A stretch of DNA of 64,000 bases from Thermoanaerobaculia bacterium (GTDB lineage Bacteria > Acidobacteriota > Thermoanaerobaculia > UBA5066), in contig CAVRAY010000001.1 in NCBI GenBank assembly GCA_963719225.1, positions 3,040,001 to 3,104,000 of the forward strand. The letters run 5' to 3'. A program made the position numbers and the translations under genes. Below are positions 34,852 to 36,900 of the stretch, in pieces. The first letter of the stretch is position 1, and each line of letters starts with the position of its first letter. The notes below the pieces were generated by a model, which ran no database searches, had not been told where the DNA came from, and saw only the letters and a program-made list of their open reading frames with translations.

Positions 34852-35340
34852 ATGTCCCGGAACTTCGACGAGATCGTGTCCGACGAGGTACTGAAGCAGC
34901 GCTCCCGTTTTGCGCCTGCCGAGGTTCCTGTCCCGGCGCGGCCCGTGTGGAACTGGGAAGAGCTGAACGCGAAGTTCCGCCCCCGCCTCATTGCCGCCGG
35001 CGTCATCCGTTTCGGCCTCTCGCAGGATGACTGCGAGGGCGCGGCGCAGACCGTCTTTCTCAAGGTGCTCGCGATGAATCCGCGCGTGCGCGACCCGAAG
35101 GCGTACCTGCGCGCGGCGTTCCTGAACCAGTGCAACAACATCCTGCAGGCGCGCGAGAGGCGCGGCGTCGGGGATTCCGACTCGGGGGTCGTGTTGCGCG
35201 AGCTCAGGCTCGCGGAATCGGGAGAGATCGAGCTTCGGGCCGAGACCGCGCCCGTTTCCGACCGGACCGGCCCGATGCCGGCGGTCCGGCGCACGCTGTG
35301 GGATCGCATTCGCGCCGGACTGGCGACGGTGACGCCGTGA
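34852..35340 (+). CDS. ECF-like sigma factor with region 2 present and region 4 apparently deleted or degenerate
   Basis: [13 protein letters not shown]...[15 protein letters not shown] is region 2; no recognisable region 4 HTH. Confidence 0.65.
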
Positions 35341-36590
35341 AGCACGACGACGTCTTCGACGCAATCCTCGAGGCGGAGCTCGTGCCAGAGCTGCCGCCTC
35401 AAGCCATGGGCCGTACGCTCCCCTTCGTAAGGGCGAACGCCCACGCCTCCGTCGAAGACATCTACCGGCTCTCGCAGGACGCGGAGAAGCCCTCCGAGCT
35501 GATCCTGAAGGCTGCGCGATCCGGCGCCGACGAGCTCGCCGCCACCCTGCGGTCGCTGGACGGCAAGCCCTACCGCGGCTTCGCGCTGCTCTATGCGGCG
35601 CAGAAGGCATTCGCGCTCGTTCCCGAGGATCCGGCCCGCGCAAATCTGGTTGCCGACCTTCTCTTCGAGGAGGGTGCGACGCTGGCGGCAGCGGTTCCCG
35701 ATTCCCGTGCATCGACGCCAGCACCTCGCCAGGCAGTCCAGGCAGAGGCCACCCTCCTGAGAGCGTATACGTTCCTTCAATCCAGTGAGCCTCTCCTCGC
35801 TCGGGCGGCCGTGACCCCGGCTCGCGAATATTTCAAAGAATCGGGCGACCTCGGTTTTGGCTCGGCCCTCTGCGATTACTACGAGGGTCAAGCCGCGAGC
35901 TACTCTCGCGACTACGAATCTGCTGAACGCCTCCTAAACAGCGCTCTCGGGACCTTTTCGGAGTTCGGCCAGGATCATCTCCACGCACGTGCTGAAGTCG
36001 CGCTGGGAACTCTCTTTCTCCACCGCGGCGATAACGATCGAGCACTTCAGTATCTCGAGCGGGCCGCGGCACGTTTCGACGCGGAACAGGATGCGCAGTT
36101 CCTCGTCCCGACGCTCAACAACCGTGCTCAGTGCCTCATGCGCCTCGAGCGGTTCGATGAGGCGCGGGCGACCCTGGCGAAGTCCATGAACCTCTGCCTG
36201 CGCTTCGGCTTTCGCTCGCATCTCCTCTTCGTACGGAACGGTCTCGCAGAACTCGACGTGCGCCGCGGTCAGTTCAAGCGCGCTCTGCGCACCTTCGGCG
36301 AAATCGTCAAGGAGGTCACGGCCCCGATTGACGTCGCGTTTGCTCGCCTCTATATCGCCGAGTGCCACGCCCGTCTCGGCAACCTTGGACCAATGGCGAC
36401 GGAAATCGAGGCCCTTCGGCGCGAGCGTCAGGAGAATCCCTTCGCTCCCTCACCCGCTTTCGGCGAACTCTTCGTCTGCCTCGACCAGGGAATGCTCGAC
36501 GCAGACCTCATCGCGCACGTCCGGGAGTACTTGCAGGACCAAGAGAACGGCACGAAGCGCGCATACCTTCCTCTGAGGCTCGTCGGCTAG
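35337..36590 (+). CDS. Cytoplasmic tetratricopeptide-repeat protein
   Basis: Repeated TPR-like helical pairs ([41 protein letters not shown]); GTGA overlap with the sigma gene; no signal peptide. Confidence 0.75.
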
Positions 36591-36620
36591 ACACAGCTGC
36601 CAACCTGTTGCGAATTTACT

Positions 36621-36649
36621 CGGCCGCCTTCGGGCGGCCGATGTTTTTT
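36621..36649 (+). terminator. Rho-independent terminator after the TPR gene
   Basis: CGGCCGCC-TTCG-GGCGGCCG followed by ATGTTTTTT. Confidence 0.8.
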
Positions 36650-36698
36650 CGGGCGTCGGGGGTCAAAAGGGCCTTTGTCCCCTGTCCTAGTAGGTGAA

Positions 36699-36723
36699 GG
36701 GCAGGTGAAACGAACACCTGCCC
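36699..36723 (+). other. Perfect 9-bp hairpin upstream of the peptide ORF
   Basis: GGGCAGGTG-AAACGAA-CACCTGCCC, ending 11 nt before the AGGAGG RBS. Confidence 0.6.
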
Positions 36724-36744
36724 GGCTTCGGGGTAGGAGGACGC

Positions 36745-36900
36745 ATGGACTTTCTTCTTATGTTTTTTGAGCTTTTTCCAGGTTTTCTGATGGGTGAATC
36801 GGGGCTTGCCGGCGGACGCCCCAGAGGCGTATCGATCAGCTCGACCCCCATCGGGATCAGTTCGACGCCCATCGGAATCAGCTCGACGCCGATTGGCTGA
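36745..36900 (+). CDS. 51-aa precursor-like peptide MDFLLMFFELFPGFLMGESGLAGGRPRGVS-(ISSTPIG)x3
   Basis: AGGAGG at 36735-36740, ATG 36745, TGA 36898-36900; all differences among the three 21-bp repeats are synonymous in this frame; absent from the supplied ORF track. Confidence 0.8.
   Translation: MDFLLMFFELFPGFLMGESGLAGGRPRGVSISSTPIGISSTPIGISSTPIG
36835..36897 (+). repeat. Three tandem 21-bp repeats encoding ISSTPIG
   Basis: ATCAGCTCGACCCCCATCGGG / ATCAGTTCGACGCCCATCGGA / ATCAGCTCGACGCCGATTGGC. Confidence 0.95.

Follow-up and report, generated by a model that had tools for sequence, protein, structure and literature searches.

A grouped sigma-factor gene, TPR-repeat gene and tiny peptide gene in Thermoanaerobaculia, with a putative peptide ligand for a TPR anti-sigma factor

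Genes and signals of the locus

Across dozens of genomes of Thermoanaerobaculia (Acidobacteriota), genes for a sigma factor, a TPR-repeat protein and a tiny peptide are grouped. We analysed one such locus within a 64,000-nucleotide stretch of DNA (the window), where the following features were placed.

34795..34824, + strand: sigma-70-type promoter-like site TTGACC-18-TAGCAT, 5' of the sigma-like gene (consensus scan)
34852..35340, + strand: sigma-like gene, 162 aa, with ECF sigma region 2 and a degenerate region 4 remnant (alignment, model)
35337..36590, + strand: TPR gene, encoding a cytoplasmic 417-aa homologue of ZAS-TPR anti-sigma factors in which the N-terminal ZAS domain is absent (Pfam, alignment, model)
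36620..36650, + strand: intrinsic-terminator-like hairpin and T-run, 3' of the TPR gene (sequence, conservation)
36660..36697, + strand: two-block promoter-like motif GGGTCAAA ... CTGTCCTAGTAGG (conservation, genome count)
36699..36723, + strand: perfect 9-bp hairpin within what would be the 5' leader of the peptide transcript (folding against shuffles)
36735..36740, + strand: ribosome-binding site AGGAGG, 4 nt 5' of the ATG (sequence)
36745..36900, + strand: peptide gene, 51 aa, with three ISSTPIG units at 36835-36897, then the stop (sequence, Tandem Repeats Finder, relatives)
36929..36947, + strand: GC-rich hairpin in the gap that separates the peptide gene from the 136-aa gene (sequence)
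36983..37393, + strand: gene for a 136-aa protein of a family without a name, likely co-transcribed with the peptide gene (tblastn, gene order)

An earlier note on this DNA had pointed to the GTGA start/stop overlap between the sigma-like gene and the GTG-initiated TPR gene, to the terminator behind the latter, and to the 51-aa ORF with its AGGAGG site and closing (ISSTPIG)x3, and all of these are present as described. The first two genes overlap or abut in relatives as well, and we infer that they are co-transcribed. The same note had remarked on a less GC-rich block; GC content does dip to 0.57-0.64 across 35750-36950, against 0.66-0.72 in the flanks, but the dip is modest and not unique, a comparable one lying in the neighbouring gene (33950-34550).

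A consensus promoter scan near the sigma-like gene returned two sites, against a mean of 0.2 in shuffled sequence. The DNA of the TTGACC-18-TAGCAT site is kept in orthologous loci, where it is seen as the alternative-frame translation VDPC(K/R)KAGVAYRGS, and we infer that 34795..34824 is a promoter. Behind the TPR gene, the terminator hairpin (36620-36641; nine pairs, eight of them G-C) is followed by TGTTTTTT. Of 18 aligned orthologous intergenic regions, 17 share the hairpin CGGCCGCCTTCGGGCGGCCG with its T-run; L021 is without that part. The two-block motif beyond it is kept in both orthologues and paralogues. In the 4.75-Mb genome, GGGTCAAA-N13/14-CTGTC occurs three times, twice upstream of peptide genes; across the whole genome there were no occurrences on the reverse strand, none in controls and none before the sigma gene. 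This motif is likely to be read by the ECF sigma family of the module.

The leader hairpin of the peptide gene has a predicted minimum free energy of -21.5 kcal/mol (z = -3.6), equalled by 0 of 200 shuffles. Six of seven orthologous leaders are predicted to form a hairpin with the same 5' arm, z scores outside the window lying between -0.03 and -2.2. No consensus structure emerged from RNAalifold on 16 leaders, as the two sub-lineages pair with different 3' arms and align poorly, and Rfam had no match at E<=1 within 34600-37500. As a side observation, four metatranscriptomes contained contigs of relatives that cover sigma region 2, the block between the TPR and peptide genes, the peptide gene in part, and the gene for the 136-aa protein; such contigs, from libraries that may contain DNA, cannot show transcription, strand or starts and are not counted as evidence. 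Matches in sequencing runs amounted to small shares only (0.05-0.08 of the sampled words), and all of these runs were contig-only.

The sigma-like and TPR proteins

The 162-aa protein had been read in the earlier note as a sigma region 2 protein, and this holds for its first part: residues 1-98 are 87% identical to the intact 188-aa ECF sigma of an orthologous locus, and it is on this identity that its sigma nature rests. The remainder departs from a complete factor, since alignment shows that a 29-residue internal deletion has removed the first half of region 4. A Pfam search with the 162-aa protein returned no sigma domain at E<0.1, and NCBIfam gave a sigma-70 subfamily at E=0.0015 only. Both regions are present in the intact orthologues and in the own-genome paralogue, and TIGR02937 (cut-off 42.9 bits) scores the intact orthologue sigma at 48.8 bits and the paralogue at 43.0 bits. 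ECF sigma factors are defined by region 2 together with region 4, and the protein in the window therefore falls outside that definition. Its structural model has a confident three-helix core (residues 35-107), a stretch of pLDDT <50 (108-145) and a lone helix (149-160). Foldseek found no match to this model at E<=0.001, and its weak list consists mostly of ECF sigma factors, one case being sigmaE region 2 (73 aligned columns, rmsd 2.3-2.4).

Intact relatives combine a full ECF sigma with a zinc-finger anti-sigma (ZAS) domain fused to TPR repeats. In the 417-aa protein, Pfam TPR_12 matches at 5.4e-16, and alignment shows that it lacks the first ~57 columns, where H-x3/4-C-x2-C is located; the protein thus starts after the ZAS domain and is without its zinc motif. 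The domain is present in 10/27 orthologous and 22/25 paralogous loci. In a second, sister family, Pfam zf-HC2 matches the N-terminus of the TPR protein at 24.1 bits (cut-off 22.2) in a published genome and at 26.2 bits in an unpublished one, and within the genus of the window the motif is H-x4-C-x2-C and falls below the zf-HC2 cut-off.

The link of the TPR protein to a sigma output, proposed in the earlier note, is stronger than the window alone could show, as the intact relatives are ECF sigma/ZAS-TPR pairs. In the window itself, half of region 4 and the ZAS domain are deleted, and a copy that has lost the anti-sigma domain and part of its sigma cannot work as the switch proposed below. One might then regard this copy as a functionless remnant, in which the switch was lost with the deletions in region 4 and of the anti-sigma domain, and what is left has still to decay. 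Both losses speak for this, as do the near-neutral evolution of what is left of region 4 in some comparisons (dN/dS of 0.31-1.14 over residues 106-162) and the decayed copies known in other genomes (L020, L025 and L027). We nevertheless consider it quite improbable, given that dN/dS is 0.07-0.24 over residues 1-105, that still shorter, 105-aa sigma forms show 0.10-0.29, and that the reduced form occurs in 17 loci of different species with TPR and peptide ORFs intact wherever the sequence is complete. In the window itself, the peptide repeats differ only synonymously, and the promoter-like block and ribosome-binding site are intact. The reduced forms raise a separate question, namely the role of a stand-alone sigma region 2 protein.

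The TPR protein had also been called cytoplasmic, in agreement with its lack of a hydrophobic segment (highest 19-aa Kyte-Doolittle mean 1.16). Its model (pLDDT 86.5) is an all-helical solenoid with a low-confidence N-terminus of about 35 residues. The structural comparison with RRNPP receptors that the earlier note had suggested gave VIA Z scores of 21-22 for peptide-bound Rap proteins and of about 20 for NprR; LGN scored higher, at 24.6. Foldseek E-values ranged from 1.5e-6 to 8e-5, and the fold matches span a broad class that includes LGN, kinesin light chain, APC subunits and designed TPRs. In a profile search of PDB sequences, Rap and NprR matched weakly (E 2e-5 to 7e-3) and generic TPR proteins scored better. 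A phylum-wide profile search gave, outside the order of the window, partial generic TPR matches in proteins of about 1000 aa, and its best near-full-length match came from the same class (E about 2e-21). Judged by its model, the protein resembles the peptide-enclosing class of solenoids; neither RRNPP-type effector, the N-terminal HTH or the Rap-type helix bundle, is present in it.

The peptide gene and its divergence

The 51-aa peptide consists of a conserved Phe/Leu-rich N-terminus, a variable linker and the three ISSTPIG units, which Tandem Repeats Finder reports as a 21-bp unit in 2.7 copies (36835-36890). All five DNA differences among the three units are synonymous, against an expectation of 27% for random single changes. 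In 13 relatives, variable sites in the units comprise 46 synonymous and 12 non-synonymous cases, and 11 of 13 metagenomic relatives carry three identical ISSTPIG units behind diverged linkers. By this substitution pattern, selection is evidently acting on each repeat unit. The N-terminus has an acidic second residue and a Kyte-Doolittle mean of 1.38 over 19 aa, and its length does not suffice to cross a membrane; in most peptide forms no export signal can be recognised. Pfam and NCBIfam held no match to the peptide.

The small ORF predicted to adjoin the TPR gene elsewhere was found in 38 of 48 related loci, often with two to four tandem cores. The earlier note would have been refuted by TPR homologues without such neighbours, and this is not what the loci show. 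We counted an ORF when it ended in P-[IVL]-x0-2, was preceded by a ribosome-binding site and lay on the same strand, no more than 450 nt downstream of the TPR gene. Control regions passed through the same filter gave 0/48, 1/48, 0/48, 0/46 and 1/46, and the excess over these zero or one per region indicates a real gene tied to the TPR gene. An (A/G)GGAGGA is kept 5' of every orthologous peptide ORF.

The second family has a tiny ORF with P-[IV]-P in all 16 loci analysed. Its peptides are ORFs of 8-19 aa or Sec-signal-like propeptides containing G/T/S-P-[IV]-P, and three of the 16 loci encode 77-83-aa forms whose N-terminus is, by eye, Sec-signal-like and whose core is C-terminal. One locus has four internal units, for which cleavage would be needed. 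Unit size agrees between the families, the 8-aa ORFs being Met plus seven residues and the repeats of the window's family seven residues long.

Among 17 paralogous loci, mean identity is 0.90 for sigma and 0.63 for TPR, and the peptides are hypervariable. Similarity of the cores follows similarity of the TPR proteins, a co-variation that the earlier note had suggested testing (r = 0.36; partial r = 0.25 given sigma, reached by 27/2000 permutations), but it is modest and the loci share descent. Between L081 and L088, the TPR proteins are 91% identical and the last eight peptide residues the same, while the N-terminal halves of the peptides differ. A 'Q-class' double-TPR anti-sigma was closest to its neighbour's TPR protein in one of three pairs. 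Taken across these alignments, signal and receptor appear to be diversifying while the output stays constant. The parts of the module also decay together, as in L020 and L025, where stop codons in the TPR gene accompany a frameshifted or read-through peptide ORF.

These observations are consistent with an autoinducing loop in which the TPR anti-sigma receptor would bind the peptide as its cognate ligand, a reading to which we give about even odds (roughly 0.5). For the peptide of the window, the C-terminal heptapeptide units (ISSTPIG x3) are the likely ligand of the TPR protein. The sigma/anti-sigma pair would be made constitutively, and free sigma would drive transcription of the peptide gene together with the 136-aa gene that follows. 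Multi-unit peptides would be cleaved into their units, and the peptide would bind in the concave channel of the TPR solenoid, whereupon the anti-sigma domain would release sigma and bring about autoinduction.

The promoter layout would fit equally well if the peptide were a mere sigma-controlled product, for instance a secreted or membrane-active one, and the TPR protein sensed another protein or signal. Apart from one other site, the promoter-like motif stands at peptide genes alone, a conserved gene follows as in an output operon, and TPR domains bind many kinds of partner. We regard this as unlikely: it leaves without explanation the joint divergence of core and TPR protein at constant sigma and promoter, as well as the selected peptide and TPR protein in loci that lack region 4 and the anti-sigma domain, and it sits poorly with an N-terminus that ranges from nothing to Sec-like and yet precedes last ~7 residues of a shared pattern.

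The gene that follows, encoding the 136-aa protein, was found by tblastn in 25 loci, directly after the peptide gene in 23 of them, and lies on the opposite strand in L058 and L079. A hairpin like that at 36929..36947 precedes it in multi-core loci and is absent from short-peptide loci, whose gap measures just 35-40 nt. Pfam and NCBIfam had no match to the 136-aa protein; separately, in protein-atlas features its nearest clusters include BsuPI (PF12690) at 0.91, a lead only. The next ORF (37416-38363) has a weak AurF/ferritin-like match (E 0.0026, below cut-off). With such a diiron-like ORF adjacent, or modifying enzymes elsewhere in the genome, the small ORF could be a multi-core RiPP precursor, an option suggested by its conserved leader, variable linker and repeated cores, by Cys pairs that often precede the core in short paralogous forms, and by a weak NCBIfam match of the TPR protein to a RiPP-associated TPR protein (19.7 bits; cut-off 1125). 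This is very improbable, as no modifying enzyme is conserved beside the modules (the diiron-like gene is present in 13 of the 25 loci carrying the 136-aa gene and absent at paralogous loci), the 8-aa ORFs are too short for a leader, and a sigma/anti-sigma pair for each precursor is not a known RiPP layout.

Route of the peptide and related systems

If the peptide is the ligand of the TPR anti-sigma factor, the likelier route to its receptor would be export and re-import, as in RRNPP cell-to-cell signalling, although we hold this part of the reading less firmly and only tentatively. There are hints of an extracellular step in the Sec-like forms at 3/16 second-family loci, in the internal units and in three OppA-family (PF00496) matches in the genome. 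The module has no linked gene for export, proteolysis or import of the peptide, and the genes downstream vary among paralogous loci. The fullest version, in which RRNPP-like quorum sensing by export and re-import extends beyond Firmicutes and heptapeptide pheromones open a ZAS-TPR anti-sigma on an ECF chassis, is doubtful. Precursors would then be leaderless, multi-core or Sec-type, and several diverging pherotypes per genome would feed a conserved sigma and sigma cascade.

The peptide may instead bind the TPR protein inside the producing cell only, as an intracellular feedback ligand in a bistable sigma switch. The scarcity of export signals, the commonness of 8-10-aa ORFs in the second family, the missing transporter gene and the cytoplasmic TPR protein all fit this, and the diderm envelope is an extra barrier to peptide export and re-import. 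Even so, we think a purely intracellular ligand has a rather low probability: cores behind a Sec-like N-terminus, seen at 3 of 16 second-family loci, make little sense for it, identical multi-copy cores kept by selection are typical of released peptides, and the divergence of peptide and TPR protein against a constant sigma resembles pherotypes, for which a private loop offers no obvious pressure.

The sensing of signal peptides by cytoplasmic TPR receptors is regarded as a hallmark of Firmicutes and of their mobile elements. If the autoinducing reading is true, the logic of a receptor with an adjacent peptide arose in, or spread to, a diderm soil and sediment phylum with hardly any cultured members. 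The module shares with RRNPP systems (Rap-Phr, NprR-NprX, PlcR-PapR, AimR-AimP, Rgg-SHP) a cytoplasmic TPR receptor adjoining a small peptide gene, a short C-terminal peptide part as the specific element, several paralogous pairs per genome and a fold similar to that of peptide-bound Rap and of NprR. It differs in its effector, where a zinc-finger anti-sigma domain with an ECF sigma as its target takes the place of an HTH or Rap-type bundle, in its host, a diderm acidobacterium, and in that most of its peptides have no Sec signal; its TPR sequence is no nearer to RRNPP than to generic TPR proteins. Tandem core copies like those of the module also occur in some phage Rap-Phr propeptides, as described in PMC11343458. 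RRNPP systems are framed as Firmicutes-specific in a survey (PMC10075063), in whose main text the terms 'sigma', 'Acidobacteria' and 'diderm' are absent. PMC10518010 describes leaderless communication peptides with RopB-type receptors, comparable to the 8-10-codon leaderless peptide genes that the second family has beside a cytoplasmic repeat-protein receptor; RopB-type receptors, however, are HTH transcription factors of Firmicutes, and secretion of the module's peptide is only putative.

On the sigma side, SigR-RsrA and SigE-ChrR are pairs of an ECF sigma and a zinc-binding anti-sigma (ZAS) factor. The module likewise has overlapping sigma and anti-sigma genes and a soluble anti-sigma with H-x3-C-x2-C (zf-HC2 in the second family), and it differs in a sensor that is a TPR solenoid of about 360 aa with a cognate peptide gene, and in a sigma operon that does not carry the module's own promoter motif. 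A TPR domain also governs an ECF sigma in ECF42-type factors, where, in the passages of PMC7826278 and PMC8999054 consulted, it is a C-terminal extension fused to the sigma itself, anti-sigma is absent and no peptide gene is described; those passages likewise make no mention of a peptide-sensing TPR anti-sigma group. In the open-access literature searched, no peptide-sensing TPR anti-sigma factor was found.

Control of ECF sigma factors is generally attributed to membrane anti-sigma factors, proteolysis, phosphorylation or fused extensions. If true, a peptide-binding TPR sensor on a soluble anti-sigma, together with a cognate peptide gene, would constitute a new class of ECF input. The roughly 40 distinct peptide-TPR pairs, in leaderless, multi-core and signal-peptide forms, offer natural variation for specificity tests.

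A cut-down sigma/anti-sigma pair next to a peptide gene

The earlier note described a sigma-like gene coupled to a TPR gene through a GTGA overlap, then a terminator and a small ORF with an AGGAGG ribosome site that ends in three ISSTPIG units, and each of these features was found in its place. The lower GC content that it ascribed to the block is a real dip, but a modest one that a neighbouring gene shares to a similar extent.

Features of the module and its downstream neighbours
34852–35340, + strand: sigma-like gene, 162 aa; its TGA stop lies inside the GTG start of the TPR gene
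35337–36590, + strand: TPR gene, 417 aa, GTG start
36620–36641, + strand: terminator-like hairpin of 9 pairs (8 G-C) and then a T-run, after the TPR gene
36735–36740, + strand: ribosome site AGGAGG, before the ATG of the 51-aa ORF
36745–36900, + strand: peptide gene, 51 aa; the final 21 residues are the three ISSTPIG units
36983–37393, + strand: gene for a 136-aa protein without a Pfam or NCBIfam family, directly after the peptide gene
37416–38363, + strand: diiron-like ORF, 315 aa, with two E-x-x-H motifs by eye
38344–40593, − strand: 749-aa ORF, convergent with the diiron-like ORF; seven FG-GAP_3 repeats (E 3.6e-49), with an ASPIC/UnbV domain at the C-terminus

The 417-aa protein matched the Pfam family TPR_12 (E 5.4e-16), and no membrane segment was found in it. 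No Pfam sigma domain was found in the 162-aa protein, whose NCBIfam sigma match reached E 0.0015 only; its residues 1–98, though, share 87% identity with residues 1–99 of a 188-aa protein that a relative encodes at the orthologous locus, and that protein scores above the cut-offs of the ECF sigma model TIGR02937 and of Pfam Sigma70_r4. Alignment with intact sigmas (alignment A6) revealed a 29-residue internal deletion in the window's protein, with the first half of region 4 gone. Its predicted structure has a confident three-helix core (residues 35–107) and one terminal helix, with residues 108–145 disordered (pLDDT <50), and a Foldseek search with this model returned nothing at E≤0.001, the weaker matches being almost all ECF sigma factors.

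The TPR partner of the intact relatives is about 475 aa long and has the same TPR body after some 57 residues with an H-x4-C-x2-C motif, while the TPR protein of a second family of related modules, from the same order, has the canonical H-x3-C-x2-C and in a published genome matches Pfam zf-HC2 at 24.1 bits (cut-off 22.2), repeating a match of 26.2 bits in the unpublished genome G025. The ancestral pair was therefore an ECF sigma factor with a soluble zinc-finger anti-sigma (ZAS) factor bearing a TPR sensor, and in the window both partners are shortened. Divergent from the sigma-like gene runs a long ORF (31972 to ~34700, − strand) that is pyruvate phosphate dikinase-like by eye.

The peptide gene and its distribution

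Tandem Repeats Finder detected a 21-bp period (2.7 copies) in the peptide gene. All five variable sites among the window's three 21-bp units are synonymous, against a 27% synonymous share expected from random single changes in these repeats; across 13 relatives, 46 synonymous and 12 non-synonymous sites vary among the repeat units, six of the latter falling in two spacer residues of one decamer repeat. Metagenomic relatives of the peptide drawn from a 5.8-billion-protein collection (13 sequences of 46–53 aa, labelled 'hypothetical protein' or unnamed at source) retain three identical ISSTPIG units in 11 cases, with the 10–17-residue linker rewritten. Together with its conservation in related loci, described below, these patterns show that the small ORF is a gene. 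Its leader holds a hairpin (36699–36723) with the same 5′ arm, (G)GGCAGG, and different 3′ arms in two sub-lineages (leaders of the related loci L034–L050); by eye, the leaders of paralogous and second-family loci have a hairpin in the corresponding position, though of unrelated sequence.

A TPR-based search with one genome per species returned 62 loci (L-numbered here), 61 of them from MAGs titled Thermoanaerobaculia or Acidobacteriota; all genomes used are MAGs. We then took the loci whose sequence continues for 300 nt or more beyond the TPR stop (48 in all) and filtered them for same-strand ORFs of 8–90 codons within 450 nt that have a GGAGG-type ribosome site and end in P-[IVL]-x0-2 (or S/T-I-G-G). 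Such an ORF was present in 38/48 loci, while in the control regions the filter passed 0/48 for the opposite strand, 1/48 and 0/48 within the TPR gene, and 0/46 and 1/46 for stretches farther downstream, bearing out the expectation that small repeat-peptide ORFs would accompany TPR homologues. Sorted by eye, the 13 loci without a passing ORF among the 51 with a complete TPR 3′ end comprise three with <155 nt of downstream sequence (L038, L069, L077), three of a long class (L065, L076, L086), three probably of that class (L058, L074, L079) and four that combine a fragmented or partial TPR gene with an altered end of the small ORF (L060, L075, L093, L094). Where TPR genes contain stop codons, the peptide ORF is frameshifted or read through (L020, L025). 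Decayed module copies in some genomes (L020/L043, L025/L075, L027/L060) pair a TPR gene that is fragmented or interrupted by TGA with a peptide ORF that is frameshifted, read through or missing.

All 24 other genomes searched of the window's genus contain the TPR gene, with 1–6 matches each. The window's own class numbers 27 loci: nine with a full sigma and a TPR protein with an N-terminal ZAS domain (ZAS-TPR), one with ZAS-TPR and a partly deleted region 4, nine window-like, and eight shorter still, in which a sigma of ~105 aa stops after region 2 and the TPR protein lacks the ZAS domain. A paralogous class (25 loci) has full sigma and ZAS-TPR, and includes a copy at 1.81 Mb in the window's own genome with a 32% identical TPR protein. 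The long class (L065, L076 and L086, the last with its TPR match at 2501–3610; also L069 and L092) has anti-sigmas of 750–800 aa with H-x3-C-x2-C and two tandem TPR bodies, without a following peptide gene; the C-terminal body of L086 is closest (78%) to the TPR of L064, the peptide-bearing module beside it. The long-class-like L058 lies in a bin titled Acidithiobacillales, its contig probably being mis-binned.

Peptides of the window's and paralogous classes have in common a Phe/Leu-rich N-terminal part with acidic residues, which either runs directly into one C-terminal core (18–21 aa in total) or is followed by a variable linker and 2–4 tandem cores of 7, 10 or 12 residues, such as ASVGPIG x3, MGVGPIS x3, SGYGPIN x2, INAGPIG x3 and AGVSPIG x3. 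The second family's TPR gene was found in 21/41 genomes, and after setting aside two loci from unpublished genomes, one contig end and two partial matches, all 16 loci analysed had a tiny ORF with a ribosome site 114–286 nt after the TPR stop. These ORFs have 8 codons in three genomes, 10 in five and 19 in four; one of 49 codons has four internal LHGPIP(S/A) units, and three of 77–83 codons have a Sec-signal-like start (by eye) and the same kind of core at the end. P-[IV]-P occurs in all 16, within the final four residues in 14; an additional 10-codon ORF of this kind in G025 was kept out of the counts. When 301 genomes of the phylum were searched with a profile, the matches outside the order were partial and generic to TPR proteins, except for a single weak, near-full-length one in the same taxonomic class; the query, alignment A1, also used for the second family, includes one row from G025.

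Promoter-like blocks and the reduced copies

At every locus of the genus, the stretch from the terminator to the ribosome site contains GGGGGTCAAA(A/G), then CTGTC ~14 bases on, and then an AT-rich element that depends on the class: (C/T)TAGTAGG in the window's and CGT(A/G)TATATAGCCCAC in the paralogous one. We read this two-block layout as resembling an ECF-type promoter. In the window's 4.75-Mb genome, GGGTCAAA-N13/14-CTGTC has three forward-strand occurrences, and it was found neither on the reverse strand nor in the control. One site precedes the window's peptide gene and another that of the paralogue; the third lies 375 nt beyond the second (G000:C1:1808629-1808654 in the window's genome; about 3209 in L002), pointing at the 3′ end of a short convergent ORF, with no conserved small ORF after it. 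No copy was found in front of the sigma gene of the module itself. Since a second copy of the peptide-type block lies 230–300 nt upstream of the long-class sigma gene in two genomes (L069, L092), its placement suggests a sigma cascade. The analogous block of the second family, GTC(C)CAA-N~16-GCACTTCA, lies upstream of the tiny ORF in 11/15 loci scanned and elsewhere once, on the opposite strand in L144.

In intact modules, peptide binding to the TPR sensor would release the sigma factor from the ZAS domain, and the freed sigma would transcribe the peptide operon; every functional step is drawn from comparative sequence data, and the RNA data are contigs of relatives. That the peptide is only an output of the sigma factor is an unlikely reading.

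Wherever the ZAS domain is missing, region 4 of the sigma is degenerate or gone (17 loci and the window), and wherever it is present region 4 is too (nine full, one partial). This joint loss, probably one or two evolutionary events, fits region 4 and the ZAS domain working together. In region 2, dN/dS is 0.07–0.24 in window-type genes and 0.10–0.29 in the 105-aa genes, and 0.31–1.14 in the region 4 remnant. Judged by sequence, the remaining reduced module is not junk; that the window's copy alone is a functionless remnant, which would be compatible with the other readings, seems improbable. Even loci whose own sigma lacks region 4 keep the upstream GGGTCAAA box, and as the paralogous sigma has the region 4 motif KTVWKRI of the intact sigmas of the window's class, cross-reading is conceivable.

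A candidate peptide receptor and its neighbours

The TPR protein was predicted (37 sequences in the alignment, pLDDT 86.5, pTM 0.79) to form a solenoid made entirely of helices (residues ~39–403). The best PDB matches were LGN/Pins TPR domains that wrap extended peptides (Foldseek E 1.5e-6, TM 0.53–0.59), followed by kinesin light chain, RapF, phage Rap with pheromone, RapJ, RapI and NprR. Re-scoring gave Z 24.6 for LGN (300 residues aligned, rmsd 3.4), 21–22 for peptide-bound Rap and ~20 for NprR, with similar values for APC subunits and a C-degron receptor. A sequence profile matched Rap and NprR no better than E 2e-5 to 7e-3, amid generic TPR proteins. The modelled fold class is compatible with a peptide receptor and is no proof of kinship with RRNPP receptors (TPR receptors of Firmicutes peptide systems).

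Among 17 paralogous loci, sigma identity is 0.84–0.99 (mean 0.90) with region 4 almost invariant, TPR identity is 0.52–0.92 (mean 0.63), and the peptides differ widely. Similarity of the final eight peptide residues correlated with TPR similarity (r = 0.36; partial r 0.25 given sigma similarity, equalled by 27/2000 label shuffles), compared with 0.05 for sigma similarity given TPR. The correlation is only suggestive of co-diversification because the loci are kin and the genes adjacent. The most telling pair is L081/L088, whose TPRs are 91% identical and whose final eight peptide residues are identical, but whose peptides are unlike in both the length and the sequence of their N-terminal halves.

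Our preferred reading, held at about 0.5, is that the TPR sensor has the heptapeptide units as its cognate ligand. An extracellular route for the peptide is a tentative possibility, favoured by the Sec-like forms, the multi-unit precursors that need cleavage and the pherotype-like divergence, and disfavoured by the lack of an export signal in most forms and of a linked transporter; a ligand acting purely as intracellular feedback is rather doubtful, and a RiPP precursor very improbable. In its layout the module would work like RRNPP systems, but it departs from them in effector domain and host range and shows no clear sequence homology to their receptors; the intact relatives are ECF sigma/ZAS anti-sigma pairs, but with a TPR sensor and a cognate peptide gene, an addition that we did not find described in literature searches or in passages of two ECF papers (PMC7826278, PMC8999054) and an RRNPP survey (PMC10075063). 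Public entries name TPR relatives only 'tetratricopeptide repeat protein' (among the 120 listed of 177 relatives at E≤1e-20) and the peptides 'hypothetical protein'.

By tblastn, the 136-aa gene lies behind the peptide gene in 23/25 loci where it was found, and since the gap is only 35–40 nt in short-peptide loci, the two probably form one operon. The 136-aa protein is 80–96% identical where the TPR is 57–86% identical; its nearest clusters by protein-atlas features include the BsuPI intracellular proteinase inhibitor (0.91), which is a lead only. Further downstream, the 315-aa diiron-like ORF, with weak AurF, ferritin-like and rubrerythrin matches (E 0.0026–0.04, all below cut-offs), recurs in 13 of the 25 loci carrying the 136-aa gene.
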